Sequence record: OR896837.1 | Length of the DNA stretch: 64,000 bases | Direction: 5' to 3' (one strand) | DNA from: Escherichia phage vB_Eco_mar004NP2 | Shown here: piece by piece, positions 2,955-58,202 of the stretch | How the letters are laid out: each line of letters begins with the position of its first letter | How positions within the stretch are numbered: the first letter of the stretch is position 1 | Position numbers and translations under genes: made by a program | Notes under the pieces: model-generated | Seen by the model: only the letters and a program-made list of their open reading frames with translations | The model's database searches: none | What the model was told of the DNA's origin: nothing

Positions 2955-3453
2955 ATTTATATTGAATTGAGAGACATTAGTAAAAATTGATTTTGCTAAT
3001 TTTTCTTGTTTACAATCCGCGATACGGAACAGTTAGGCTGCCCCATTAAGGGTTGTTTTAACTGTTACGTGTTAGTTTTTAAACAAATAGTTAATAGAAT
3101 ACTTAGCGATCTGCGTCCCGTAGGAACCCTGGTAAGGCCTCGAAGCAACCTAGATAGAGGTGGTTGTGAAGTGAGACGGGAGGAGTGAAAAACTCCGAGA
3201 CGTGATTCTGTAAGTTATATTGCATCTAGTATGAGCTAGTATATGAAGCATTAGGTGAGCAAATCTGGCTTAGCGGCCATCCTCAAGGATTTGTGCGGTA
3301 TAGCAAAGCAGCAGCGCAGCGTGAAAGTGGAAGTTGCCACCCCACTTCAGTATTTGCGATTAATTTGTTGAGAAATTGACAGTAACAGTTGTTCTATTCT
3401 TTCTGAATAGTCCTAAAGAAAACTTATTTCATTTCCAACACAGGAGTATTGTT

Positions 3454-6243
3454 GTGTTTTCAATCCTACAAGGTCATGCAGGATTTCATCGCGATTTAGC
3501 CACAGGCAATTGGCGAGAAGTTAAAGCAGAAGATTATCTTTTTGCTAAAAGATTTTCCTCAAAGCATCCTGAAGGTAAACCAGCTTCAATGCCCTTCAAG
3601 TTTGATGTAATTGACGAAGTTGATCCTCAAACCCTAGTAGAAATGCTTCCTCTTATGAGACGTTTAACGTCTGACCCTCATATCGTTGCGGTACGAGGTC
3701 GATGTCTTGCACCTAAAAATAATGTGCGGCGTAAGAATGGCAACTTTAATGTATCTAACCCAAGTCATATAATTGCAATGGATGTGGATGGTATTGTAGA
3801 TACAGGTGGTTGTAACAAGTTTGATCTTGTTGGCATGGCTCGACATATTATTAGAATGTTAAATAGTATTAGTGAGGATATGTTTCCTCTTGATGCAGGG
3901 TTTATCGCTCATGCATCGTCTTCGGCTGGGCTAAAACCAGGTATCCGAATGCACTTAATACTAGAATCTAATGTTAAAGTAACTCAGGGTCAAATCAAAT
4001 TCTTATTTACATCTATCAACGAAAGTAGTAGACAAAAGTATGGCTTTGATATTGCCGACTTAGCTTATTACTCTTCCGTACAGCTCCATTATTTTGCAGA
4101 TCCGTTATTTACCGATGGTATAGTAGATCCGTTTAAAGAGGAGGGTGCTTCACGTCTGGTATTTGTTAAGGGTTCTAAAGTAAATTTACCCAATAATCTG
4201 GTTGACTATGAAACAACTAGAGGTGAGTTTAAAGAAGAGTTCTACTCTTTACTAGACCAAATTAAGGGTAAAAAAGCTGCCTCTGATAAAGTAGAAGAAA
4301 CCATCAGCGAACTAGAAGAAGCTGAGGATGGAGTGTATCTACGTATTATTCCTAAACTCTATCACAGGGCTTTAGAGGATGGTGTTGATTTTGCATGGCT
4401 AGAAAAAGAAATCCGTCCAGCCTTATCAGAATATATTGCAACTAAAGATAATAGTCGTAATATTCAAGACTACTTTAATAATGGTCGTAAACAGGCTCTA
4501 AAAGCATTTGTTAATAATTCTAAACGTTATATACCGGATGTTTTAAAAGGTATTCCACTCAAAAAGCTAGAAACTAACTCTTTAGAGACTGATAACTTCT
4601 TGAAATTAAATACTGTGCCACCAGAAGGTTATATGACTTTTGTAAAAGCGAGTCTAGGTACAGGTAAAACTACAGCGGTTGTGCGTTGGTTAGATTCAGG
4701 AGTTATTAAAGGTAATTTCTTAGCAATTACCAATACTCGAGCACTGGTATCTTCCAATGCTAAGAAATTTAGTGCAGGACAATATGATAAGTCTGTAGAT
4801 ATGCTTAATTTTAAGCGTGGTGCTATTGACCGTATGTCCACAACTATTCACTCTTTGCATAAGTTCAAGAGTTTTATTGGTCAAATTGATGCAATCTTTA
4901 TCGATGAATGTGATGCAGTAATGAACGACCTATTATTCGCCCCGGTTGTTAAACAACGTCGTGAATGTATTCAGGTTCTTCGGGATATTCTTGCAACTGC
5001 AAAAATCATTATATTATCAGATGGTGATATTAGTGCAGAAACAATTGAAGCATATGGTTCTTTGATCGAGTTTGATAAACCGGTTGCATTTTATAATCAT
5101 CACCGTAAAATGCTGTCAAAAGCTCATGCTTATGAGTTTCCTGATGAATCCAGTATTTGGGTTGCACTTCAGACTTCTCTAGAGATGGGTGAGAAATCTA
5201 TTCTGGTATCTGATTGTGGCCCTGATGAGCTGAATGAGAAGGGTATGGCATTACGTCGTAATACGGGTGCGTTAGTTAAGGAAATCCACTCAAATTCTAC
5301 GTCTGATGTGGATATTAGACGTATTCTGGATTACACAACTAATGAGCTGATTGATCAACAAATTGATTGCTTATTATGTAGTCCATCCGTAACGAGTGGA
5401 GTTGACTTCAACTATTTTGATAACGTATTCGTTATTACTAGAACCAGTAACCAAGCGCCAAACATGCGTTTTCAAGCAATCAGGCGCGACCGTGGTGCTC
5501 AGAATATCTATTATTTTATTGATAAATCTACGAGTGGATTCTCTGCAGGTTCTGAACAATATAATATTGATGAGGGCTGGCTGGAGTTAGCACAGCAATT
5601 ATATGCACGTCGTAGAGAGCTGGAATCTAGAAATTATACTAGTACTTTACGTTATTACTTGCTTGATCAGGGTGCAACTATTGATATTTTCAGCGAAAGC
5701 TGGGGAACTATTGAAGGTGCAGGGAAAGAATATATGGAAGAGCGAATCAAAGCTATTCTACATTCAACTCCTGATTATTGTGCTCCACGTCATGCGGATG
5801 CGTATGAAGCTAAACTACTTCTTGTTCGCTATTATCATCTTGAGTCTATTAAAGATGTAACAGTTGAGCATGTTGAACAATATATCAAGGATAAACCTAA
5901 TGATCGAGCGGCATTCTTCCATAAAATGCACGAGATGTTTTGGGAAGATATTAAGAAGTGTTCAAACGTCACTATCAAACCATTCATAGAAGCTCTGAAA
6001 GGTAAGAAGAAGGACTTCTTCCTTAAAACAGGTCAGAGTGCTAACCCAAAATATGCTAGAATGTATCTTGGTATGATGGGTATTGGTAAGGATATGAACA
6101 CTGAAAATATTGTAGACTGGTACAGAACCTATTGTAAAATCGAGTGTATGCCAATTCCTTATAAGTTTATGACTGATGAGGAGAAACATATGCATGATGA
6201 AGCAATGGCAGAGCTAGGTGCTAGAAATGACAGTGAAGAATAA
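3454..6243 (+). CDS. replication helicase, UL9/origin-binding-protein-like SF2 helicase with a possible primase-like N-terminal domain
   Basis: Walker A ASLGTGKTT and Walker B IFIDECDAV in the translation; N-terminal AMDVDG acidic motif. Start placed at GTG 3454 with AGGAG 7 nt upstream (track start 3376 is TTG). Confidence 0.6.
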   Translation: MFSILQGHAGFHRDLATGNWREVKAEDYLFAKRFSSKHPEGKPASMPFKFDVIDEVDPQTLVEMLPLMRRLTSDPHIVAVRGRCLAPKNNVRRKNGNFNVSNPSHIIAMDVDGIVDTGGCNKFDLVGMARHIIRMLNSISEDMFPLDAGFIAHASSSAGLKPGIRMHLILESNVKVTQGQIKFLFTSINESSRQKYGFDIADLAYYSSVQLHYFADPLFTDGIVDPFKEEGASRLVFVKGSKVNLPNNLVDYETTRGEFKEEFYSLLDQIKGKKAASDKVEETISELEEAEDGVYLRIIPKLYHRALEDGVDFAWLEKEIRPALSEYIATKDNSRNIQDYFNNGRKQALKAFVNNSKRYIPDVLKGIPLKKLETNSLETDNFLKLNTVPPEGYMTFVKASLGTGKTTAVVRWLDSGVIKGNFLAITNTRALVSSNAKKFSAGQYDKSVDMLNFKRGAIDRMSTTIHSLHKFKSFIGQIDAIFIDECDAVMNDLLFAPVVKQRRECIQVLRDILATAKIIILSDGDISAETIEAYGSLIEFDKPVAFYNHHRKMLSKAHAYEFPDESSIWVALQTSLEMGEKSILVSDCGPDELNEKGMALRRNTGALVKEIHSNSTSDVDIRRILDYTTNELIDQQIDCLLCSPSVTSGVDFNYFDNVFVITRTSNQAPNMRFQAIRRDRGAQNIYYFIDKSTSGFSAGSEQYNIDEGWLELAQQLYARRRELESRNYTSTLRYYLLDQGATIDIFSESWGTIEGAGKEYMEERIKAILHSTPDYCAPRHADAYEAKLLLVRYYHLESIKDVTVEHVEQYIKDKPNDRAAFFHKMHEMFWEDIKKCSNVTIKPFIEALKGKKKDFFLKTGQSANPKYARMYLGMMGIGKDMNTENIVDWYRTYCKIECMPIPYKFMTDEEKHMHDEAMAELGARNDSEE

Positions 6244-6528: not shown

Positions 6529-7233
6529 ATGGCTGGTTCTCGTAGAAAGAAACATATCCATGAAATCCCGGATGAAGTCTTTAAAAAGGTTATAGAGCAT
6601 CTGGAGAACGGTGGTACTAAGAAAGCAGCATGTGAAATGCTCGGCGTATCATCTAATCCAACTATGGAAAGAATGATTGAAGAATGGCAAGACCGCCAGA
6701 TTCAAGTTGCCGAAATGAAGAAAAAGAAACGTGGCACACTCATTGAAGGCATTGAGTTAGCTAACGTTATTGAGCAGTATTTATCTGGTGATTCTTTTGA
6801 AGAAATTGCCGATCGTAATTACCGCTCTGTAGCAATGGTTAAATCTGTTCTGGAACGATATGGTGCTCTACTTCGTTTGAACGATATTGTAGATCCATTG
6901 AATCCTCCAATTATTCCTGATGATGCTGTAGCAGAAGAATTTGCAGTTGGTGAGCTTGTTTGGGTTCCTGGATACCAGTGTATCGGTGAAATCAAAAAAG
7001 CAATGGATAATCCTGTTGGTTGTTACCGTGTATGGCTTCTATCGGAAGGCAAACAACAGAACGTCCATTATATGAATTACGAGTTGGCCTCTGTTAAGCA
7101 TCTAGAAAAGTTAGGGGTTGACGTAAAATCTCTAGGGTACAAGTGGACTCGTGAAGAAATTATTACGTTGATTAACGAAGCTGTTAAGGCCGCCCTGAAG
7201 CTTGATAAAGAAAAAGGAAAACGCCGTGAGTAA
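6529..7233 (+). CDS. putative DNA-binding (HTH) early protein
   Basis: N-terminal GGTKKAACEMLGVSSNPTMERM resembles a helix-turn-helix; strong RBS GAGAGGAG. Confidence 0.45.
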   Translation: MAGSRRKKHIHEIPDEVFKKVIEHLENGGTKKAACEMLGVSSNPTMERMIEEWQDRQIQVAEMKKKKRGTLIEGIELANVIEQYLSGDSFEEIADRNYRSVAMVKSVLERYGALLRLNDIVDPLNPPIIPDDAVAEEFAVGELVWVPGYQCIGEIKKAMDNPVGCYRVWLLSEGKQQNVHYMNYELASVKHLEKLGVDVKSLGYKWTREEIITLINEAVKAALKLDKEKGKRRE

Positions 7234-7489
7234 GCTAACAGATTTGCTTAAAGATGGAGATGTAAAATATCTCCAGCGGGATAGCTGGGGTAATTGGGAC
7301 GCTCGTACTTATTACTCTACTATTATAAAAGTAGATGTTGATAATAATGATATTGTCGAGTTTACCTGGTGGCTCAATGAAGGTGGGTATACCAAGTTCG
7401 ATATAAAAGACGCAACATGGAAAACCTCCTCCCTAACCCTAGAAGAAGCTCTGGCGGATGATTGGGAGATCGTTGAGCTAGATGTGTAG
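7226..7489 (+). CDS. hypothetical protein
   Basis: GTG 7226 with AAGGA 7 nt upstream, overlapping the previous stop (track start 7202 is TTG). Confidence 0.4.
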   Translation: MSKLTDLLKDGDVKYLQRDSWGNWDARTYYSTIIKVDVDNNDIVEFTWWLNEGGYTKFDIKDATWKTSSLTLEEALADDWEIVELDV

Positions 7490-7510
7490 CAATTACAGAA
7501 AAAATTTCAG

Positions 7511-7539
7511 TTGCTTAATCCTATAATTCTTGATATAAT
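7511..7539 (+). promoter_or_regulatory. sigma70-like early promoter
   Basis: TTGCTT-17 nt-TATAAT. Confidence 0.55.
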
Positions 7540-7596
7540 ATTCTCATAGTTTGAAAGAACTATTCTGTTTAATTATTAATTAAGGAAATATAAAAT

Positions 7597-8007
7597 ATGA
7601 CTACTCCAACTCAGTGGACTGATGAACTGTTCGAAAAAATGTCTTCCGAATACGTTGCTCGTATGGAGCAATTCCCAGAGGATGAACGTCCGGGTGTTAG
7701 CATGGAAATTGTTAGCGAAATTGCCCAGGAAAATGGTGTAACTCCGAACGGTTTTCGTATGAAGCTAACTAAAGCAGGTGTGTATATCAAGAAAGCTGCT
7801 GGCTCTGCTTCTAAATCTAGCGCATCTACTGGAGAAAAAGCTTCTGGTGGTTCTCGTACTTCCAAAGCCCAAGCTCATGCCGATCTTCGTTCAGCATTCT
7901 CTGATGCTGGCTTAGCACCAGATTTTCTGGATGATGCAATTATCGACAAACTGACCGGTAAAGCGGCTGCTCATCTGGCAGAAGCAATCCGAGCTATCAC
8001 TAAGTAA
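7597..8007 (+). CDS. hypothetical abundant early protein with one HeH-like module
   Basis: Codons biased to GCT/CGT/CTG/GAA; contains TPNGFRMKLTKAGVYIKKA, related to the repeats of ORF 10733..11500. Confidence 0.5.
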   Translation: MTTPTQWTDELFEKMSSEYVARMEQFPEDERPGVSMEIVSEIAQENGVTPNGFRMKLTKAGVYIKKAAGSASKSSASTGEKASGGSRTSKAQAHADLRSAFSDAGLAPDFLDDAIIDKLTGKAAAHLAEAIRAITK

Positions 8008-8043
8008 TTTCTAGATAAATCCACCAACAAAAGGAACACAGTT

Positions 8044-8337
8044 ATGACCAAAGCTGAAATTATCGCACAATGTGAAAAATTTGGTGAGTTTTATCTTCAT
8101 TACGAGAAACTTCGTCAGAAAGGAACCACGTACCTTCAGGGTACGATGGAATTTGATCCAGCCCAAGATAAATATCTGGCTGAGCGTATTAAACGTGAAC
8201 GTATTCGTAAAGCGAAAGATGATGAGATCCTTGTCTTCTCTCGTACTAATGATAGCTTCCGTTTTATTCCTGTCGAGAAAGTCCGTCGTGTGACTAGCCT
8301 CCAATCAGAGTTAGATCGTGCTTCTCCAGTAGGCTGA
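8044..8337 (+). CDS. hypothetical protein
   Basis: 97-aa ORF with RBS AAGGA; basic, lysine/arginine-rich. Confidence 0.45.
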   Translation: MTKAEIIAQCEKFGEFYLHYEKLRQKGTTYLQGTMEFDPAQDKYLAERIKRERIRKAKDDEILVFSRTNDSFRFIPVEKVRRVTSLQSELDRASPVG

Positions 8338-8350
8338 TAAGAAACCAATT

Positions 8351-8378
8351 AGCCCCTATATGGGGCTTTTTGTGTATT
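8351..8378 (+). terminator. rho-independent terminator
   Basis: AGCCCC-TATAT-GGGGCT followed by TTTTTGTGTATTT. Confidence 0.6.
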
Positions 8379-8390
8379 TGGGATATGTAA

Positions 8391-8699
8391 ATGAGCGAAC
8401 AGGTAAATCAAAACTATGAAGGACACGTTGATGACCAGTCCATCATACTCTGGGAGAAGGAGGGAGAACAAGTAAGATTAACAGTATCTGAATTTCGTGG
8501 GAATCTATACATGGGTATTCGTTACTGGCTTCTTGATATTAATGATGAATGGTTTCCAACGAAATCTGGCTTCTCTTTTCCTTACACCCTAGAAACAACA
8601 TCGCAGCTTTTCTATGCGTTTACACAGATTCTTAGCGAATCTGAGGTTTTACATGAAGTACAGAAACGAGCTGAAGAACTCAAAGCCAAGAATGCCTAG
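8391..8699 (+). CDS. PC4/p15-like ssDNA-binding protein (putative)
   Basis: Pattern RLTVSEFRGNLYMGIRYW...WFPTKSGFSFP resembles the PC4 coactivator fold signature (K..VS...F.G...IDIREYW...PTKKGISL). Confidence 0.4.
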   Translation: MSEQVNQNYEGHVDDQSIILWEKEGEQVRLTVSEFRGNLYMGIRYWLLDINDEWFPTKSGFSFPYTLETTSQLFYAFTQILSESEVLHEVQKRAEELKAKNA

Positions 8700-8718
8700 T
8701 TCTTGGCTTTTTCTTTAT
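8684..8718 (+). terminator. rho-independent terminator
   Basis: AGCCAAGAA-TGCCTAG-TTCTTGGCT followed by TTTTCTTTAT; the stop codon lies in the loop. Confidence 0.55.
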
Positions 8719-8726
8719 AAATGTAT

Positions 8727-8755
8727 TTGCTTTCAACTCAGTTTTGTTATATAAT
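8727..8755 (+). promoter_or_regulatory. sigma70-like early promoter
   Basis: TTGCTT-17 nt-TATAAT followed by TATAAATTAATGAGAG leader. Confidence 0.55.
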
Positions 8756-8786
8756 ATTTATATAAATTAATGAGAGATACAAATAA

Positions 8787-9758
8787 ATGACTAATGTAAA
8801 AGACTTTATTAAACGTTGCCAAGAAGCATATTACCAGGGAATGTCTTTAATCTCTGACGAAGAATATGATCGTCTGATTAAAAGATTTCCGTTAGAAGAA
8901 GAGATCGGGCCTAAGGGCGATATTCCACATCTGTATCGTATGTATTCTTTACAGAAAGTTTATTATAATCGTGGAGATAAACCTCCGTTTAACCCATTAG
9001 GTCAGGTAGAAACTGATAAGTTAGATGGTTGTGCGATTTCTCTGTTATATATTAATGGCGAATTTGTTCAAGCATTAACTCGTGGTAATGGCATTCTAGG
9101 GAATGATGTCACAAGCAACGTAAGATTGCTGAACATCCCTAAAAAGATTTCCCAAAAAGTACCTACTCAAATCACTGGTGAAGTTCTAATTACAAAAGAA
9201 GTAGAAAATAAACGTAACTTTGCCTCTGGTGCTATTAACCTCAAGGATAGAGATGATTTCGTACAACGTATCGGGGAAGGTGGTTTAATCTTCGTTGCAT
9301 ATGGTATCCAGTGTTCTGCTGAATCTGTAGGTATTACAGAAGCGTATTTAAAAGATATGCTTTGGCTGGAGAATGAGAACTTCTTAACAGTTGTTAATGT
9401 GCGTTCCTTCTTTAAATGGATTCCGACGGACGGTAAAGTTGTTCGTATCAATGACAATAACAAATTCTTCCGAGAAGGCTGGACTAATAAATTCCCTCGT
9501 GGAGCATTCGCTATTAAAGAGGATGAAGAAGGCGAAATTACAACTCTTACTAAAGTTGAATGGCAGGTAGGGGCTTCTGGTAAAGTAACTCCAGTTGGTT
9601 ATTTTGAACCGGTAATTATTGATGATGCTACAATTGTTAAAGCGACTCTTAATAACGTTGATTATATTAACTCTCTCGATCTAGAGATCGGTTGCCAGAT
9701 TCGAGTGATTCGTGCTGGTGGTGTAATCCCGTGTATAGTAGAGCGAGTATACGATTAA
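8787..9758 (+). CDS. NAD-dependent DNA ligase, N-terminal (adenylation/OB) subunit
   Basis: LigA-type adenylation motif ETDKLDGCAIS (KxDG lysine), RGNG and EGxV motifs; 323 aa; ends before the Zn-finger/HhH/BRCT part. Confidence 0.8.
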   Translation: MTNVKDFIKRCQEAYYQGMSLISDEEYDRLIKRFPLEEEIGPKGDIPHLYRMYSLQKVYYNRGDKPPFNPLGQVETDKLDGCAISLLYINGEFVQALTRGNGILGNDVTSNVRLLNIPKKISQKVPTQITGEVLITKEVENKRNFASGAINLKDRDDFVQRIGEGGLIFVAYGIQCSAESVGITEAYLKDMLWLENENFLTVVNVRSFFKWIPTDGKVVRINDNNKFFREGWTNKFPRGAFAIKEDEEGEITTLTKVEWQVGASGKVTPVGYFEPVIIDDATIVKATLNNVDYINSLDLEIGCQIRVIRAGGVIPCIVERVYD

Positions 9759-9901
9759 TACATAACCCTTTGCTACCCATCTACCATATCGGAATTATAA
9801 AGTGGTTATTGACATTTTCGCCGCTTAGGTATATACTATTATCATTCAGTTGAGGGATAGAAAGTTATGGCGAGGGTAAGCAAAGTTAGTTAAAATTGTA
9901 G

Positions 9902-9930
9902 TTGCTAAATGCTTAAATACTTGCTATAAT
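9902..9930 (+). promoter_or_regulatory. sigma70-like early promoter inside the ligase split
   Basis: TTGCTA-17 nt-TATAAT; a second candidate TTGACA-17-TATACT lies at 9813-9841. Confidence 0.5.
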
Positions 9931-9960
9931 ATTTATATAAATTGATAAGGAAGAAATTTG

Positions 9961-10740
9961 ATGAAAATCGAAATTCCAACACAATGTCCCTCTTGTGGTT
10001 CTAAGCTAGATCTTGTCAACGGACAATTATTCTGTCGGAATAAGTCCAACTGTCCAGCGCAATCAAGTAAGTTAATTGAGAACTTCTGTTCAAAAATGAA
10101 GTTAAAGGGCTTTGGCCCAAAAACTATTGAGAAGCTGGAGCTGACGAAGATTTCAGAACTATTTTACCTAACCGAAGAAGATTTGGTTAGAGCCGTGGGT
10201 AGCAAGGTTGCCGCTAAGTTAATTAGCGAATTAAATACTAAAGTTCGCGGAGACATTGACTTTGGTTCAGTTCTCGGTTCTTTAGGAATCCCTCTAATTG
10301 GAGAGGTTGCAGCAAAGAAATTATCCCAAAATTACACTAGCTTCCATGATGTGAAGGCTGACGGCAAGGCTGGAGAAAATTACAAAGCCTGGCTAAATTC
10401 CCCACAAGGCAAGGATGTTATCGAACTACCGTGGAAATTTTCAACTGGTATTAAGGGCACTAAAGCTGACGTCATCATTACAGATGAATTAGTTGCCCAG
10501 CCAAATGGAATCGCGGTATGTATTACCGGATCTTTGCAAGATTTTGCAAATCGAACGGATGCAACAAACTATTTAGAAGGTCTAGGGTATACGGTTAAGA
10601 AATCCGTTACTAAAGACGTCAAATACCTAATCTGTGAGGATGAATCAAAACGTTCTTCCTCATCTTATAAGAAAGCCGAAACGAATGGGATAGAAATCCT
10701 GTCGATTAAAGAACTATTGGAGAAAAATAATAATGTCTAA
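9961..10740 (+). CDS. NAD-dependent DNA ligase, C-terminal (Zn-finger/HhH/BRCT) subunit
   Basis: CPSCGSKL...FCRNKSNCPAQ four-Cys zinc finger, glycine-rich HhH-like segment (GFGPKT, GIPLIGE), BRCT-like C-terminus; ATG 9961 (track start 9958 is TTG). Confidence 0.75.
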   Translation: MKIEIPTQCPSCGSKLDLVNGQLFCRNKSNCPAQSSKLIENFCSKMKLKGFGPKTIEKLELTKISELFYLTEEDLVRAVGSKVAAKLISELNTKVRGDIDFGSVLGSLGIPLIGEVAAKKLSQNYTSFHDVKADGKAGENYKAWLNSPQGKDVIELPWKFSTGIKGTKADVIITDELVAQPNGIAVCITGSLQDFANRTDATNYLEGLGYTVKKSVTKDVKYLICEDESKRSSSSYKKAETNGIEILSIKELLEKNNNV

Positions 10741-11500
10741 ACTGAACTGGAACGTAGAAGGTGTAACCGAGTCTCTGAAAGCAAAAGCCACTGCTCTGGG
10801 TGTTGCTGTAATCTCTCAAGAACAAGTAGCTGCTATCGCTGCTGAACTGGCTGCTGAAACTGGCAAAGACGTTACCGCTCGCTCTGTTGGCTCTAAGCTG
10901 CGTAAAGAAGGTTTTGAAGTACAAAAAGCTAACGAAGTACAGAAATCCCCGTGGACTCCTGAGCAGGAAGCTGAACTGGTTGATTTCCTGAACGCTCATG
11001 CTGGTCAGTATACCTATGCTGAAATCGCTGCTGCTGTAGCTGGTGGTCAATTTGGTGCTAAGCAGGTACAGGGTAAGATCCTGAGTCTGGAAATGACCGC
11101 CTCTGTTAAACCAACTGAAAAAGCTGCTGCTGTTCGTTCCTTCACTCCTGATGAAGAAACCGATTTTGTTAATCAGGTTGTTGCTGGGGCTACTATTGAA
11201 GCTATCGCTGCTCACTTCGGTCGTAATATCAAGCAGATCCGTGGTAAAGCTCTGAGCCTGCTTCGTGAAGGTCGTATCGCTGCTATGCCGGTACAGGAAA
11301 CTTCAAGTGCTAAAACTCGTGAAGATCTGTTAGAAGGTCTGGATCTGGCTAACATGACTGTTGCTGAGATCGCTGAGAAAACTGGTAAATCTGAGCGCGG
11401 TGTTAAATCTATGCTGTCTCGTCGTGGTCTAGTTGCTAAGGACTATGATGGTGCTGCTAAGCGTGCTAAACTGGATGCAAAAGCTGCGGCTGCTGAATAA
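10733..11500 (+). CDS. hypothetical abundant protein with four tandem ~40-aa HeH/SAP-like repeats
   Basis: Four repeats of the type [TQ]x[AE]EIAxxxGxxxxxVxxKxLSLxxxG; strongly host-optimal codon usage. Confidence 0.5.
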   Translation: MSKLNWNVEGVTESLKAKATALGVAVISQEQVAAIAAELAAETGKDVTARSVGSKLRKEGFEVQKANEVQKSPWTPEQEAELVDFLNAHAGQYTYAEIAAAVAGGQFGAKQVQGKILSLEMTASVKPTEKAAAVRSFTPDEETDFVNQVVAGATIEAIAAHFGRNIKQIRGKALSLLREGRIAAMPVQETSSAKTREDLLEGLDLANMTVAEIAEKTGKSERGVKSMLSRRGLVAKDYDGAAKRAKLDAKAAAAE

Positions 11501-11517
11501 TCTGGTAAATTAAACCT

Positions 11518-11553
11518 AAGGGGAGGGGGCTATGCTCCTTCCCCTTTTTTGCA
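11518..11553 (+). terminator. rho-independent terminator
   Basis: AAGGGGAGGGGGC...CCTTCCCCTT hairpin followed by TTTTTTGCATTT. Confidence 0.6.
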
Positions 11554-11583
11554 TTTAGAAGGCACGAAAGCGTGCAAAGGAGA

Positions 11584-13056
11584 ATGACCTTGTTTAACGT
11601 GCAAGCTGTAGTGTTGAAGATGCTTCTTGCTTCTGAACAGAAGCAAATAGCATTGGAAACATTCTCAAAACTGCATAAAGATCATTTTAATGACGCTTTC
11701 TCCTCAATTTACCAAGCCGTCCAGAATTATTATAAAAAATATAACACAATGCCGTCCATTGACGCACTTATGCTTGAAGCTAATAGGAACGCCCGCCTTT
11801 CTCAAGCTCTAGTCGTCTTAGCTAACACTCAAATTCCAGAAGTGAGCATGGAACAGGCACTTGAAGTCCTAGAGGCCGAATATACACAAGATTTATTCCT
11901 AAAGCTTCTAGAAACAGATGTGCTTCAAGATTTAACAATGCTGGATCAGGGAGAAATTCTCAACCGAGTTGCCTCCCTTCACTTAAAATTAGAAGAGAAA
12001 GTAACGAATACTGGAAAAGTATTCAACGCAGATAACATGCGTATTTTCCAGAGAGAAGAAGATACCAAACTGAACTTAATCGCTCTTGGTATTTGTAATG
12101 AGTTCGACGCTCAAATTGGTTTAGCTCGCACAGAAACGTTACTGCTTGGTGGTTGGCGTGGTACTGGTAAATCCATTATCTGTTCAAACATACAGGTTCA
12201 GCAATATTTGAATGGAGATATTGCTCCATACTTCTCAATTGAGATGAAAGAACATGAAGTATTTAGACGTAATCTAGCCATGTTAGCTGGTGTATCAGCA
12301 TTAGCAATGCGTAATAATACTCTAGAAGGTGCAGCTCTGTTGAGATTGGCCAGAACTAGAGCTAGGATGTTCAACGGGGGTGAGGAGCTTTTCGATAACT
12401 TCGTTAAACAGTATACAATGGCTAAGATGAGTGATTTCTACGATATGGAGAGTAAGCTAATAGAAGGATATGAGCTACATACTCCTATGATTATTGTTTA
12501 TGACCCTGAGCTGTCCATTACAACAGTTGACGTAGAATTAAATAAATTAGTTGCTAGATACGGAGATAAAGTTACAGTAGCTTTACTGGACTATATTAAC
12601 CAAACCCGACTTCCAGACTCTAAAACCATTGATATGTATGACTGGAAAGAACAGATGGTTGTCAGCTCGTCTTTCAAATCTATCTGCCAGAAACATAACG
12701 TGGCTGGTGTAGCTCCTTACCAGATTGATCAAGATGGTAGAACACGTATGTCAAAGGGGATTCTTGATTCCGCAGACATGGCTGCTAATCTTAATGCTGC
12801 AAAAGCTGATAATGGTCAAGGTGCTATTATGTTTGACTTCGTTAAGACCCGTTCTTCTGATAGCGTGAAGTTTATGCCTAAAATGAACTGGGAAACCCTG
12901 CGGATGGATAACACTATCAACCTAGCAATGGAAGATATATCTCAAATGGAAGCTGAGTTCGTTATCCCTATTGAGAAGGATAAGCCGGCTCAATCTAAAC
13001 GTGCTAAGAAAGACAAAGCTGAAAATTCAACAGGTGAACAGGCCAGCGATATATGA
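11584..13056 (+). CDS. replicative DNA helicase (DnaB/RecA-fold, SF4-like)
   Basis: Walker A GGWRGTGKS and Walker B-like MIIVYD; sits directly upstream of and overlapping the primase gene; start uncertain (GTG 11572, ATG 11584 or TTG 11590). Confidence 0.65.
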   Translation: MTLFNVQAVVLKMLLASEQKQIALETFSKLHKDHFNDAFSSIYQAVQNYYKKYNTMPSIDALMLEANRNARLSQALVVLANTQIPEVSMEQALEVLEAEYTQDLFLKLLETDVLQDLTMLDQGEILNRVASLHLKLEEKVTNTGKVFNADNMRIFQREEDTKLNLIALGICNEFDAQIGLARTETLLLGGWRGTGKSIICSNIQVQQYLNGDIAPYFSIEMKEHEVFRRNLAMLAGVSALAMRNNTLEGAALLRLARTRARMFNGGEELFDNFVKQYTMAKMSDFYDMESKLIEGYELHTPMIIVYDPELSITTVDVELNKLVARYGDKVTVALLDYINQTRLPDSKTIDMYDWKEQMVVSSSFKSICQKHNVAGVAPYQIDQDGRTRMSKGILDSADMAANLNAAKADNGQGAIMFDFVKTRSSDSVKFMPKMNWETLRMDNTINLAMEDISQMEAEFVIPIEKDKPAQSKRAKKDKAENSTGEQASDI

Positions 13057-16960: not shown

Positions 16961-17450
16961 TTTCAAATTGCCCGTATATGCTTTACGGGCGTTTGTATCA
17001 ATTGAGCAAGAAGGTGATTATTCCGTAATTACAACAAGATATAATAAATATGTGCTAGATAACAGGAAGTTGCCTGGCACGTTTTCTCAACGTAGACTTA
17101 TTCTATTTGAGAAACGGAAAGAATTACCATACAAGCTCTACCCTATTAGAGGTAGAATATCAATGTTGTCTCAATTAGTTGGGTCAAAGCGTAGCCAATT
17201 TATAGATTCTGATGGAAATCTTATTAACTGGAAGAAAACTACGTTCTATGATGTTGTCACCTCTAAAGTTTTGCATTCAGCTAGAATTTATAATGGAAAA
17301 TACCAATGCTATGTGGCTAAAGTTCCTTATCCATTTGTATTATCCTATGTTCCAGCTTATATAAGCTATATTCTGGTAAATAATAGCCCTGTTATTTATC
17401 AAGTCCATCAAGAGGAGCCTGAAATTCCTAGACTTAGAATAAAATTATGA
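16953..17450 (+). CDS. hypothetical protein (start uncertain)
   Basis: Frame open between polymerase and helicase genes; track start is GTG; first internal ATG is far downstream; ends in ATGA coupling with the next gene. Confidence 0.3.
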   Translation: MLNFKLPVYALRAFVSIEQEGDYSVITTRYNKYVLDNRKLPGTFSQRRLILFEKRKELPYKLYPIRGRISMLSQLVGSKRSQFIDSDGNLINWKKTTFYDVVTSKVLHSARIYNGKYQCYVAKVPYPFVLSYVPAYISYILVNNSPVIYQVHQEEPEIPRLRIKL

Positions 17451-19020: not shown

Positions 19021-19305
19021 ATGCTCATAGAGCCTGATGCTCACCAATTATTGGTCGGTTCCTCATTCATTTTGAATGAGTCAACAATAGTTGATAATCC
19101 AAATAAATTGTCTAATAGACAACTGGCAGAATATCTAGGAATTTTAAGTCTACGAAATTATGCCGAATACAAGTTTACAAACGATCCTAGTTTGAACATA
19201 CAATATGTTCCAGTATGGATACCACGTTTAGTAATCGACACTAACCCACTAATCGCAATTAACAAATCGAAATTAATCTTTAAAGAGGAAATAAAATATG
19301 GCTAA
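19021..19305 (+). CDS. hypothetical protein (doubtful; may be untranslated leader)
   Basis: 94-aa ORF with no RBS; region carries perfect palindromes. Confidence 0.25.
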   Translation: MLIEPDAHQLLVGSSFILNESTIVDNPNKLSNRQLAEYLGILSLRNYAEYKFTNDPSLNIQYVPVWIPRLVIDTNPLIAINKSKLIFKEEIKYG

Positions 19306-20071
19306 GTCTTGGGGCGAAACTACTGGCGGTTCTAACGATAAAATCGAATTCCTGAAGTTCAACAACGGTATCACTCGTGTCCGTATCGTTTCTGGTGTTC
19401 TTCCACGTTATGTCTATTGGCTGACTAATAAAGAGGGTAACGTAGCTCCTTTTGAATGTCTCCGTTTTAACCGTGACAAAGAGAGCTTTGTTCGTGGTAA
19501 AGCTGATCCGGTTCATGAGATGGGCTTCTTCGAGAAAGAGCTGGATAAAGACGGTAATCGTGTTCCGCTGAAACCGAAGAAAAACTATATCGCTTTTGTT
19601 ATCGACCGTTCTGATAACAAACTGAAAGTAATGGAAGTCAAGGCTACTATTCTGAAAGGCATCCAGTCTATCATGAAGCAGTTGAATCTGGCAACTCCGT
19701 TTGATATTGATATTTCTATCGAGAAAAAAGGTAAAGGTTTCGATACTGAGTATGATGTACAGCAGATTGCTGCTATGCAGTTCCAGATTAAGCTGCAAGA
19801 TCCTAACAGTGCAGAATCTAAGCAATATGCTGCAGATGTAGATCTGATCGGTGAAGCTATGTGTGATGAAGATGGCGACATCATTAAGTTCGAAAAAGTT
19901 CCTTCTCTGGAACAAACCTATCCGGTTCCTACCTATGAAGAGCAGAAAGAAGCAATTCAAGCCTTCATGGAGGGTCGTGAGAATAAAGATGATGATGCCA
20001 AATCTGGTAATAGCAATGCAGGCTCCCAGAAAGGTATTGACACAGAAGCTGCAAGCGATCTGGACGACTAA
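19298..20071 (+). CDS. single-stranded DNA-binding protein-like
   Basis: Strong RBS AAAGAGGAA; highly optimal codon usage; acidic C-terminal tail ...EAASDLDD typical of SSBs. Confidence 0.55.
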   Translation: MAKSWGETTGGSNDKIEFLKFNNGITRVRIVSGVLPRYVYWLTNKEGNVAPFECLRFNRDKESFVRGKADPVHEMGFFEKELDKDGNRVPLKPKKNYIAFVIDRSDNKLKVMEVKATILKGIQSIMKQLNLATPFDIDISIEKKGKGFDTEYDVQQIAAMQFQIKLQDPNSAESKQYAADVDLIGEAMCDEDGDIIKFEKVPSLEQTYPVPTYEEQKEAIQAFMEGRENKDDDAKSGNSNAGSQKGIDTEAASDLDD

Positions 20072-55200: not shown

Positions 55201-56865
55201 TTACGCAAAGAATTTACCGTTTTTAAAGTCAATCAAAGTGCGCTGACCGTTTGCATAGGTAATTAAATGCGTTTGCGTCCAGCTTGACGCGCCAACGTTG
55301 TAACCCATGTCCAGACTACCAGCTACGCCAGCGGTATACACGCCGCCATAAATGCTGGCGGTGTGAGTGTGTCCGGTGTTTAATTTGCCCAATTTCTTAA
55401 ATTGTTTAGGATTGCCACGGCTGCCGTTAATGCCGTTGTGACCGTGTACGCCGCATTCAATGCCTACAATCTTGAAAGATTGGTCAGTAGTTAGAAAAAT
55501 GGCGTTAAACTCACAACCTGCAACCTTGCGCAGCGCATAATCTAGCACGTTGAAAGTATCGTCTTTTTCTGCAATAGCTCCATAAATCGCGGCATTTAGG
55601 CGGTGATATAGTTCCGCGTTTGCTGGATCGTCTTTAATGTTAGCATTACGATCATCAAGCCAACGGGATAGCGCCAAATCGTGATTAGATTCAACAATGA
55701 TTGTTTGCGAGAAATCACGTTCCATTGATTCCAGCACGCGCCCCGTATCGATAAGATCATCTAATACCTTATCACGTCCGGCGGCGTATTGTTTTGCTAG
55801 GAATACACCGGATGCGCGGTTGTGATGGTTGCGTGATGTAAAATCATGCACGTCATGGATAAACTGATATTTAGGCTTGAGAATATCAAGCAAGCTATTT
55901 TCGCCAGCCCATGACGCAACGGCACAATCATCATCTAGTTTTTCTGCGTGAATATCGCCGTATTGCAAGCCTAAAACATGCCCCGATGTCTCATAGCATC
56001 CGGCAGGAGTAGCGCACACATTCAGATCATAAAATACCCCGCTTTCGTCCATCGTTTCGAGCTGGCGTACAAAAAATTCCCCGTCCTCGTCGAACTCGAC
56101 AATTAGCGCACCGAAGTTATGCAGCGCCTCGGCCTTTTGTCCTGCTTTCTGCTGAATGTAGTTTTTGAGCGTTGCCGTTCCGGTTGAGTACATACGGCGC
56201 ACTACTTCACCTTTTAAAGCTGGCACGCTTTCAGCGGTAATTTTAGCGTGACCAATTGCCAGACCTTCCAGATTAAGCGCCGTTGCAGTTTCAGCGAATC
56301 CAGAAAGCGGATAATCTGCGGTTGGCAAAACGTTAATTTCAGCCATGAAAGCAAAACGGCGGTTATTTAAAAACACGTTTTTATTGCAGATATATTTGTC
56401 AAATGCGGAATCATATTTTATTCCTTCTGCACCCTCGCCATTTTGAAAACCGTTTTTGTTATAAATAAACTTGCTAACCAGCAAATCAGCGCCGATATAT
56501 TTAGCAAATTGCTCCAATGAGGCTAAAAAGTTTTTATGCGGGAAAGTATTATTCTGAATCGACGTAATAATAAAGCGTTTACCCTGCTTTACTTCCCATT
56601 GCTCAACCGTGCTAGAAACAATCCCCGCCGCTTCTGGACGCTCATCGTTTTTAATGGCTTTTGCTACTTTCGCCGCTTTCGGTTTAGCTGGTTTATTTGC
56701 TTCCAACCAGTCGCAGATAGCGGTCGAGTGTTTTGTTGTATCGTAGACCGCTTTTGATATATCGTCGCAGACCTCCAGTTTAGTAGCGCGCAGACGTTTA
56801 CCATAGAAATTAAAGTCAGCGGCCATTTTCAGGATAACGGTTTGTTTTTCTGTGGAAATAATCAT
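55201..56865 (-). CDS. A1: A1-like pre-early metallophosphatase/nuclease
   Basis: 554 aa with calcineurin-like motifs (GDIHAE, ESNHD, GVHGHNG, GHTHT); size close to T5 A1 (about 556 aa as I recall). Confidence 0.65.
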   Translation of the reverse strand: MIISTEKQTVILKMAADFNFYGKRLRATKLEVCDDISKAVYDTTKHSTAICDWLEANKPAKPKAAKVAKAIKNDERPEAAGIVSSTVEQWEVKQGKRFIITSIQNNTFPHKNFLASLEQFAKYIGADLLVSKFIYNKNGFQNGEGAEGIKYDSAFDKYICNKNVFLNNRRFAFMAEINVLPTADYPLSGFAETATALNLEGLAIGHAKITAESVPALKGEVVRRMYSTGTATLKNYIQQKAGQKAEALHNFGALIVEFDEDGEFFVRQLETMDESGVFYDLNVCATPAGCYETSGHVLGLQYGDIHAEKLDDDCAVASWAGENSLLDILKPKYQFIHDVHDFTSRNHHNRASGVFLAKQYAAGRDKVLDDLIDTGRVLESMERDFSQTIIVESNHDLALSRWLDDRNANIKDDPANAELYHRLNAAIYGAIAEKDDTFNVLDYALRKVAGCEFNAIFLTTDQSFKIVGIECGVHGHNGINGSRGNPKQFKKLGKLNTGHTHTASIYGGVYTAGVAGSLDMGYNVGASSWTQTHLITYANGQRTLIDFKNGKFFA

Positions 56866-56962
56866 ATTAATAAAACTCCATTAAAGGGATTAAAAAACGT
56901 TTGTTATTGGCAAATATTGCCAAATATAACGCCTTGAATAATAGGCGTTATAATTTGCAACA

Positions 56963-57160
56963 TTAATTTAAAGGCATAAGGCTAGAACTAACACCACAAG
57001 CAATGGCGGCAATAAAACAAATCAGACCTAAACGCTTTGCCAATTTAGACTTACGTTTAAAATAATATGAGTCTAAATCATTTTGAAAATAAGCGAATAA
57101 TAACGAGGCCGCCATAATAAATAAGCCTAGAATTAACGATTCAGTGGGGTAAAAGATCAT
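56963..57160 (-). CDS. small membrane protein
   Basis: 65 aa with two hydrophobic helices. Confidence 0.4.
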   Translation of the reverse strand: MIFYPTESLILGLFIMAASLLFAYFQNDLDSYYFKRKSKLAKRLGLICFIAAIACGVSSSLMPLN

Positions 57161-57216
57161 TTTAAAACTCCAGTCAAAGAGAAATTATAGTGGGGAATAT
57201 TCCCCGCTAATTAAAT

Positions 57217-57624
57217 TTATTCACCTGCGGCCTGTTTTACTTCATCGGCAACGCCTAACAGTTGCGCTACGGCGTCCAGCGTTTCAAGTTTTGCACTTTC
57301 CAGACTTGCCAGACCGTCGGCGTCTTTAATAATGCCGGAATCAATAGCATGTTTAGCGATAACGCGTACATAGTGAGCTTTGCGGATTGAGCTACCGCCG
57401 CCAACTTTGCGAGGCTTATCGCTTTTCTGATACGCTTTTGCGCTGGTCAATTTTGATCGAACAGACACGGGAGAAGACGCGCCCACTGCTTTTGCAATCT
57501 CTTTTAAACCGTCGCTATTTGCGAAATCTAAACCGTTTTCATTAATTAACTGCTGGTACATAGAAACAGCTTTTTGAGTGTTTTCTTCATTCCAAGCAAA
57601 TTTTGCGGTTTTAACGTTAGTCAT
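57217..57624 (-). CDS. hypothetical pre-early protein (candidate A2-like by size and position, unverified)
   Basis: 135 aa, immediately upstream of the A1-like gene. Confidence 0.4.
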   Translation of the reverse strand: MTNVKTAKFAWNEENTQKAVSMYQQLINENGLDFANSDGLKEIAKAVGASSPVSVRSKLTSAKAYQKSDKPRKVGGGSSIRKAHYVRVIAKHAIDSGIIKDADGLASLESAKLETLDAVAQLLGVADEVKQAAGE

Positions 57625-57720
57625 GGTAAAAACTCCTATTAGTTTAATTTAAGGGATAAGATTAACATAATGTTAATCGTTATATCCCCCGAACTACTGG
57701 GGGATATAAAAGTAACACTA

Positions 57721-57972
57721 TTACGCTACAGCTTCCCATTTTTCGTTACGCTGTACAACCTTTACAACGTCGCCGGATTTAACGCGAACGCTAAAAACGG
57801 TTTTGCCGTTGTTACTACGTTCATTTTCAGCGTATACCGCGTCGATTGTATCAAACGGCATAAGCGCCGCACCTTTAATACGTTCGGCTTTTCCGGTTAG
57901 TTCATCCGTTTTAGTAACGAAAGGAATAAAAACGGATTGACCAATTTTAGGCGCGGTAATAACGTTTTGCAT
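57721..57972 (-). CDS. hypothetical protein
   Basis: 83-aa ORF with an RBS. Confidence 0.4.
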   Translation of the reverse strand: MQNVITAPKIGQSVFIPFVTKTDELTGKAERIKGAALMPFDTIDAVYAENERSNNGKTVFSVRVKSGDVVKVVQRNEKWEAVA

Positions 57973-58202
57973 AGTATAAACTCCAAGTTATTTAGGGGAT
58001 TGTTCCGCATTACCTGCTAGAAAGTAGCAGGTAATAAGCAACAATCCGCTCACCGCTATAATCAATTTAAGGAACTCCACGCAGGCTGCTATATCCCAGT
58101 TAGGGGGCAGGATGATTTATGGGGAATCACCTAACCGTCAAATTGTATCAAGTTATCGCTCTCATCGAACTGGGTACATCTTAAAGCCTATCGGCTAGGG
58201 TG

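Follow-up and report, generated by a model that had tools for sequence, protein, structure and literature searches.

What kind of protein do two early genes encode when they seem to share a small repeated module and are written in codons far closer to the optimum of the host than those around them? The question is raised by a stretch of DNA from Escherichia phage vB_Eco_mar004NP2 (sequence record OR896837.1; the whole 64,000 nucleotides (nt) analysed are called the window below), in which a first-pass annotation, made from the sequence alone, had picked out two open reading frames (ORFs) at 7597–8007 and 10733–11500. Both ORFs are present at those positions, and annotated relatives together with the T5 record AY543070 identify them as genes D3 (T5.113) and D5 (T5.118), respectively. 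As set out below, D5 consists largely of four helix-turn-helix (HTH) modules in tandem, D3 carries one module of the same kind, and both proteins are probably abundant DNA binders of the early phase of infection.

10733–11500, + strand: gene D5, 255 amino acids (aa), 27.0 kDa, pI 6.8; early double-stranded DNA-binding protein with four tandem HTH modules and a C-terminal helix
7597–8007, + strand: gene D3, 136 aa, 14.5 kDa; matches PHROG 1725 'DNA binding protein', E = 1.7e-50

The source phage is T5-like (Tequintavirus). By megablast, region 7400–11700 of the window shares 99.6% identity with Salmonella phage SPLA5b, and each of 427 records of T5-like phages spans at least 80% of that region. 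The D5 protein is 99.2% identical to T5 D5 (T5.118, AAS77164), both being 255 aa long, and D3 is 97.8% identical to T5 D3 (T5.113). D5 matches PHROG 323 'transcriptional regulator, D5-like' over aa 1–253 (E = 1.9e-71) and occupies the position of the T5 D5 family in the early replication cluster, 3′ of ligB and 5′ of the DnaB-like helicase D6; nothing of substance sets it apart from its T5 counterpart. The interval between D3 and D5 encodes a functionally unassigned protein of 97 aa, a PC4-like protein, ligA and ligB, and the DnaB-like D6 helicase follows D5. Both genes belong to the core of the Demerecviridae, D5 being found in 902 and D3 in 593 phage records. D5 and D3 are therefore long-named T5 genes, and the genes themselves are not new.

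The first-pass annotation had read D5 as four tandem repeats of about 40 aa. Four repeats are indeed present, as indicated by self-alignment, by comparison of profiles and by an AlphaFold2 model. The best off-diagonal Smith–Waterman score within D5 was 75, compared with 38.9 ± 6.9 for shuffled sequences (n = 200; z = 5.2); a single shuffle out of the 200 equalled the score of 75, because D5 is 18% Ala. For a profile-based test, an alignment of 40 D5 homologues (50–81% identity) was split into quarters, R1–R4, which were compared with one another by hhalign. R2 and R3 matched with a probability of 96% (E = 4e-9, 53 columns), R3 and R4 with E = 7e-5, and R1 matched R2, R3 and R4 with E-values of 6–9e-4; the R2–R4 comparison gave E = 0.011, with just 11 columns of helix 2 aligned. 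A common register over helix 2, the turn and helix 3 runs through the R1–R2, R1–R3, R1–R4, R2–R3 and R3–R4 alignments. The period had to be revised: it is 53–60 aa, as marked by the recurring K55, K115, K172 and K225, and the earlier value of about 40 aa arose because the consensus from which it was taken, T-x-AEIA-x3-G-x5-V-x2-K-x-LSL, spans only the core formed by helix 2, the turn and helix 3. At the DNA level, D5 contains no long repeats and just short, GCT-rich matches of low complexity (GCT being an Ala codon), so the repeats are visible at the protein level only. The repeats and the helix that follows them lie as follows.

10733–10948, + strand: D5 repeat 1, aa 1–72; helices 11–22, 29–43 and 49–58; invariant W6, R50, K55, L56 and R57
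10949–11140, + strand: D5 repeat 2, aa 73–136; helices 76–88, 95–101 and 109–118; W74; invariant Q113, G114, K115 and L117
11141–11320, + strand: D5 repeat 3, aa 137–196; helices 139–150, 155–162 and 166–178; invariant G171 and K172
11321–11449, + strand: D5 repeat 4, aa 197–239; short first helix, then helices 210–217 and 221–231; invariant G223, L228 and R231
11450–11497, + strand: Ala/Lys-rich C-terminal helix of D5 in the AlphaFold2 model, aa 240–254; R244, K246 and D248 nearly invariant

In the literature we found no account of this four-repeat architecture; a 2026 preprint on retrons mentions just 'a helix-turn-helix motif' (10.64898/2026.07.11.737809).

The AlphaFold2 model of D5, built on the 40-sequence alignment, contains three full three-helix units and a shortened fourth copy. 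Its mean predicted local distance difference test score (pLDDT) is 92.4 and its predicted template modelling score (pTM) is 0.51, a pair of values that fits well-defined domains whose mutual orientation in the model is undefined. Each modelled unit is a bundle of three helices in which a tight turn of some 3–4 residues precedes the last one, that is, a classical HTH; short flexible linkers join the units. Structural superposition matched the module to solved HTH domains. Pfam searches agreed with this fold to varying degrees. Sigma70_r4_2 matched repeat 4 at 29.1 bits (cut-off 25.7) over the HTH part of the profile only (positions 23–49 of 54), and repeats 1–3 matched HTH profiles only below their cut-offs, with weak hits to Myb at aa 71–100 in repeat 2 and to HTH_23, HTH_28 and EutK_C on repeat 3. 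In the homologues, at E ≤ 0.01, matches were found to Sigma70_r4_2 (34 of 40), HTH_23 (22 of 40), Myb (11 of 40) and GcrA (4 of 40). When the D5 profile was run against PDB sequences, an engrailed homeodomain variant came first (E = 0.003, repeat 1) and Timeless third; Foldseek with the whole D5 chain returned nothing significant. Together, these results identify the module as a three-helix HTH of the Myb/homeodomain/GcrA type. It is not a Myb repeat in the strict sense. Three regularly spaced tryptophans are the criterion for Myb repeats; D5 differs from Myb/SANT domains (PF00249; c-Myb R1R2R3) in keeping the first Trp only (W6 and W74), and its score of 17.6 bits against Pfam Myb, with a cut-off of 24.4, leaves it outside that family.

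D3 carries the same module once, at its N terminus, as the first-pass annotation had proposed.

7597–7797, + strand: N-terminal HTH module of D3, aa 1–67; helices 9–23, 31–45 and 50–60 in the AlphaFold2 model
7798–7854, + strand: disordered Ser/Ala/Gly/Lys linker of D3, aa 68–86, pLDDT below 50
7855–8004, + strand: C-terminal three-helix domain of D3, aa 87–136, with an invariant K-x-T-G-K-A-A core

With a profile of 23 D3 homologues, D3 residues 1–69 aligned with D5 residues 1–68 (probability 84%, E = 7e-6), and the excised N-domain (aa 1–67) matched D5 repeat 1 over 59 columns by hhalign (probability 91%, E = 1.2e-6) and D5 repeat 4 with E = 2.5e-5. The claim of a nucleic-acid-binding module common to both early-region proteins is thus supported. 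The AlphaFold2 model of D3 has a pLDDT of 78.7. In the C-terminal domain, the alignment of the 23 homologues shows a nearly invariant Leu between the K and the T of the conserved core; this domain was considered as a further copy of the module and rejected, as it gave E-values of 0.1–0.6 against every D5 repeat. The D3 profile retrieved 248 cluster representatives at E ≤ 0.001, and most of the 150 listed are 110–150 aa long. Pfam PF26822 appears as a precomputed match on some D3 homologues and on some D5 homologues, and may be a recent curated family spanning the shared module. Our literature search found nothing on the function of D3.

Next, we measured codon usage in the 62 ORFs of the window. 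The codon adaptation index (CAI), calculated with Sharp–Li E. coli weights, is 0.685 for D5, which ranks first among the 62 (the major capsid gene has 0.664), and 0.543 for D3, which ranks fourth. The mean of the window is 0.287 with a standard deviation of 0.111, and the immediate neighbours of the two genes lie at 0.23–0.38. When the amino-acid sequence was held fixed and synonymous codons were drawn from the rest of the window, the CAI of D5 stood out with z = 15.9 and that of D3 with z = 6.7. The bias is plain in the raw codons of D5, in which CTG accounts for 16 of 19 Leu, ATC for 9 of 10 Ile and GCT for 41 of 46 Ala, and AGA, AGG and ATA do not occur. The effective number of codons (Nc) is 32.2 for D5 (second lowest) and 36.5 for D3 (fifth), with a median of 44.7; the relative synonymous codon usage (RSCU) correlates with that of the major capsid gene at 0.89 for D5 and 0.92 for D3, with a median of 0.47. 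The GC content at third codon positions (GC3) is 0.31, the same as in the neighbours and thus not raised, so the signal lies in the choice of codons and not in base composition. Furthermore, ligB is preceded by the same pair of promoters, yet its CAI is 0.23, and the bias is therefore specific to D5. These measurements confirm the early impression that both genes use host-optimal codons, unlike the genes around them. No tRNA genes were found in the window. A 257-aa ORF at 19298–20071 (+ strand), which falls into PHROG 1607 'single strand DNA binding protein', ranks third in CAI (0.549), with an Nc of 34.4 and an RSCU that correlates with that of the capsid gene at 0.91. All of the early genes with the strongest codon bias in the window code for DNA-binding proteins. 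A 95-aa ORF at 17163–17450 (+ strand) also has an unusually low Nc (36.9).

Both genes lie behind promoters that are matched in T5, and a strong terminator follows D5.

7511–7539, + strand: sigma-70 promoter 5′ of D3, TTGCTT-17 nt-TATAAT; orthologue of T5 P-N26 (annotated in AY543070)
9809–9837, + strand: promoter P-K28b ahead of ligB and D5, TTGACA-17 nt-TATACT; annotated in AY543070
9902–9930, + strand: promoter P-K28a ahead of ligB and D5, TTGCTA-17 nt-TATAAT; annotated in AY543070
9958–10740, + strand: ligB, NAD-dependent DNA ligase subunit B; its 3′ end overlaps the start of D5 by 8 nt
11518–11556, + strand: strong intrinsic terminator directly 3′ of D5 (to 11546 in a narrower delimitation), a 13-bp stem with 8 G–C pairs, then a T run

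The region of the D3 promoter is 94% identical overall to the P-N26 region of T5, with one mismatch in the core; a consensus scan missed this promoter because its −35 hexamer matches at only 3 of 6 positions. The 200-nt gap 5′ of ligB is 100% identical to T5, and a GGAG sequence at 10719–10722 precedes the ATG of D5 by 10 nt. According to work from Bujard's laboratory, P-N25, P-N26 and P28 are reportedly among the strongest promoters of E. coli. In a virion preparation of phiR2-01, a T5-like Yersinia phage, the homologue of D5 ranked among the most abundant proteins even though it is no component of the T5 virion (PMC8624392). The very high expression that the first-pass annotation had deduced from codons is thus backed by the codon bias, by T5-matched promoters and by the proteomics of a D5 homologue in a relative.

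Taken as a whole, the observations are best explained if D5 and D3 are T5-like early DNA-binding HTH proteins made in abundance, with D5 coating phage DNA, and we regard this as probable. D5 is said to bind duplex DNA cooperatively and independently of sequence, as Rice et al. in 1979 (J Biol Chem) and Fujimura and Roop in 1983 (J Virol) reportedly found. The entry for D5 in the T5 record AY543070 describes a DNA-binding protein that is needed for DNA replication and late transcription and is involved in a shutoff of gene expression; it refers to the studies of McCorquodale in 1979 (J Virol 29:322) and related work. Of the functions that had been proposed from the sequence (host shutoff, nucleoid remodelling or transcription control), transcription control agrees for D5 with what that entry says; host shutoff is credited in T5 to the pre-early protein A1 (10.64898/2026.04.02.716235), and in the literature we found no link of D3 or D5 to it. 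More recently, T5 D5 was described as the protein that naturally triggers the type IX retron-Kva2: the purified protein is a 26-kDa species in solution and remodels the retron-Kva2 complex, an AlphaFold3 model places D5 on the msdDNA stem loop of the retron, and D5 alone is mildly toxic (10.64898/2026.07.11.737809).

We propose that D5 would be made in very large, near-stoichiometric amounts shortly after entry of the complete genome into the cell, and that host-optimal codons would allow fast synthesis of both D5 and D3 by host tRNAs. The four recognition helices of D5 could then be laid along duplex DNA with little sequence preference, so as to coat the replicating phage DNA. Such a coat would shut early promoters, permit late transcription and support replication. 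D3, an A2 paralogue of the same lineage, would be a second abundant DNA binder acting on phage DNA after whole genome entry. Several points weigh against this explanation. HTH modules occur more typically in regulators that recognise specific sequences. With 34 K+R and 34 D+E, D5 carries no net charge, an uncommon property in a protein that would coat DNA at large. The CAI values rest on one table of E. coli weights, although the fixed-sequence test, Nc and RSCU give the same ranking independently of that table. Finally, D3 alone did not trigger the retron (10.64898/2026.07.11.737809).

A different role, which we consider possible but unlikely, is that D5 acts chiefly at T5 late promoters, as a transcription factor with sequence specificity or as a cofactor of RNA polymerase, in the manner of GcrA, an HTH DNA binder that accompanies the sigma-70 holoenzyme. 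GcrA consists of one HTH and a C-terminal domain that interacts with sigma-70. The structural match of the module and the late-transcription phenotype both favour such a role for D5. However, D5 has four HTH modules where GcrA of Caulobacter (PDB 5YIU; PF07750) has one, and in the D5 model a single helix (aa 240–254) follows the fourth HTH, which would leave little room for a C-terminal domain of the GcrA type; save for this helix, the model offers no candidate for a polymerase-contacting domain outside the HTH array. Sequence similarity to GcrA is not significant for this protein, and no D5 segment matched Pfam GcrA at E ≤ 1. A codon bias of capsid strength and the high spectral counts of the D5 homologue in phiR2-01 argue for structural amounts, and D5 is needed for DNA replication as well as for late transcription (AY543070).

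Two further readings, one of the module and one of the codons, fared worse than the cofactor role. The first-pass annotation had called the module HeH/SAP-like, which would make it a two-helix DNA- or RNA-binding motif. At the level of sequence alone, the conserved core T-x-AEIA...G...K-x-LSL does resemble SAP, with two helices and a Gly-containing connection, and the short two-helix core, the conserved Gly and the DNA-binding context are features that D5 has in common with SAP and HeH. This reading is contradicted by the models, in which the units of D5 and D3 are predicted to be three-helix HTHs with a tight turn instead of two helices with an extended linker. Nor did comparisons of sequence or structure yield a match to SAP or HeH: Pfam listed no SAP, HeH or LEM family at E ≤ 0.1 for D5, for D3 or for the set of 23 homologues of D3, and none stands among the 25 of 35 matched families listed at E ≤ 0.01 for the 40 homologues of D5. 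We regard this reading as hardly tenable. As for the codons, their bias might be a by-product of amino-acid composition or of foreign origin, since D5 and D3 are rich in Ala (18% and 15%) and their overall GC contents (0.47 and 0.46) exceed those of their neighbours. Composition is contradicted by the z-scores obtained with the amino-acid sequence fixed, which remain at 15.9 and 6.7. Against this explanation also stand a GC3 equal to that of the neighbours, codon preferences like those of the capsid gene (r = 0.89–0.92) and the place of both genes in the Demerecviridae core; it is, in our judgement, very improbable.

D5 and D3 do not carry the module alone. It recurs in two further proteins encoded in the window, pre-early A2 and early T5.111.

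57217–57624, − strand: pre-early gene A2, a 135-aa DNA-binding protein; annotated A2 in LR027384 and PP094244
57421–57612, − strand: N-domain of A2, aa 5–68; matches D5 repeat 1
6529–7233, + strand: T5.111 ('D2' in AY543070), 234 aa, 5′ of D3 and behind the annotated promoter P-N25
6550–6876, + strand: HTH pair of T5.111, aa 8–116, homologous to D5 repeats 3 and 4

By hhalign, the N-domain of A2 matched the D5 profile at repeat 1 (probability 95%, E = 2.4e-8) and the D3 profile at its N-domain (probability 92%, E = 6e-7), and single HMM-to-sequence comparisons on A2 gave E = 7.9e-9 (with the D3-family HMM) and 6.8e-7. A2 falls into the same PHROG as D3 (phrog_1725, E = 3.6e-51). Over 104 aligned residues, the two proteins share only 26% identity (BLASTP E = 0.006), but both consist of an HTH module, a linker rich in G, S and K, and a helical C-domain; they differ in timing, A2 being pre-early and D3 early. 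A2 is codon-biased too (CAI 0.436, z = +4.0). For T5.111, profile–profile comparison aligned residues 8–116 with D5 residues 132–236 over 101 columns (probability 90%, E = 1.4e-6), the single sequence matched the D5 profile with E = 3e-5, and Pfam gave weak matches to HTH_28 and HTH_23; with a CAI of 0.32, T5.111 is not codon-optimised. These E-values for the module in A2 and T5.111 come from pairwise tests, and the same scores would be non-significant in a search of a whole database, which is probably why the link is missing from ordinary annotation. NCBIfam has no model for D5, D3, A2 or T5.111. With pairwise profile E-values of 1e-6 to 2e-8 and the PHROG common to D3 and A2, the homology of the module across the four proteins appears reasonably supported at the sequence level. 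T5.111 bears the label 'helicase' in PHROG 3611 and in several records, and helicase motifs are absent from it in Pfam. The label probably stems from a clash of names, D2 being T5.111 in AY543070 and a helicase of about 930 aa (3376–6243, T5.108) in Wong et al. 2013.

The resolution of this clash bears on phages that escape retron-Kva2, which were mutated in 'D2' (E76Q), D3 (E30Q and G85D) and D5 (G53D, W74*, V149I and G232D) (10.64898/2026.07.11.737809). Residue 76 is a nearly invariant Glu in T5.111 and a His in the large helicase called D2 by Wong et al. 2013; the mutated 'D2' is therefore T5.111, and thus all three escape genes carry the module. In D5, G53D falls within the recognition helix of repeat 1, G232D lies just past the end of the recognition helix of repeat 4, and W74* (10952–10954) ends the protein as repeat 2 begins. 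The W74* phage is viable, and the T5 record has D5 as needed for replication; a mixed population or read-through seems likelier here than a true null. The DRT4 trigger 'ORF55', also a phage DNA-binding protein, was considered and set aside, as it is a different T5 protein encoded in a deletable region.

These observations invite a wider idea, which we put forward tentatively and to which we would give somewhat less than even chances: that the Demerecviridae have a paralogous family of GcrA/Myb-like HTH proteins deployed in temporal succession, in which D5 serves as a phage 'chromatin' protein and the module itself is sensed by retron-Kva2. The succession would run from A2 (pre-early, one copy) through T5.111 (early, two copies) and D3 (early, one copy) to D5 (early, four copies, which would have arisen by internal amplification). 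Sensing of the shared module by retron-Kva2 would explain why escape mutations fell in exactly T5.111, D3 and D5.

The surroundings of these genes yielded a few separate observations. The NAD-dependent DNA ligase is split, as in T5, into ligA (8787–9758, + strand; adenylation and OB domains) and ligB (9958–10740, + strand; HhH and BRCT domains), with the two promoters in the spacer between them. The ORF at 8391–8699 (+ strand) encodes a 102-aa protein in which Pfam finds a PC4 domain (transcriptional coactivator p15; E = 8.1e-8), and a terminator-like hairpin follows at 8682–8710. The sign of the GC skew flips near 24 kb and near 52 kb, at switches of the coding strand. The source assembly is circularly permuted or joined across the terminal repeat (55201–58000, − strand; composition profile).

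The module family formed by A2, T5.111, D3 and D5 is a modest new point, and its consequences are of several kinds. That D5 is a four-fold HTH array, and not a single HTH, alters how its binding to DNA and its reported triggering of the retron should be modelled. The D5 gene, with its very strong codon bias beside a poorly adapted ligB that lies 3′ of the same promoters, offers a clean case of translational selection acting on one particular gene of a phage. A2 is essential for the second step of DNA transfer (10.64898/2026.04.02.716235), and the shared module ties it to the early proteins of replication and transcription. The same module suggests one reason why a single defence system selected mutations in three genes.

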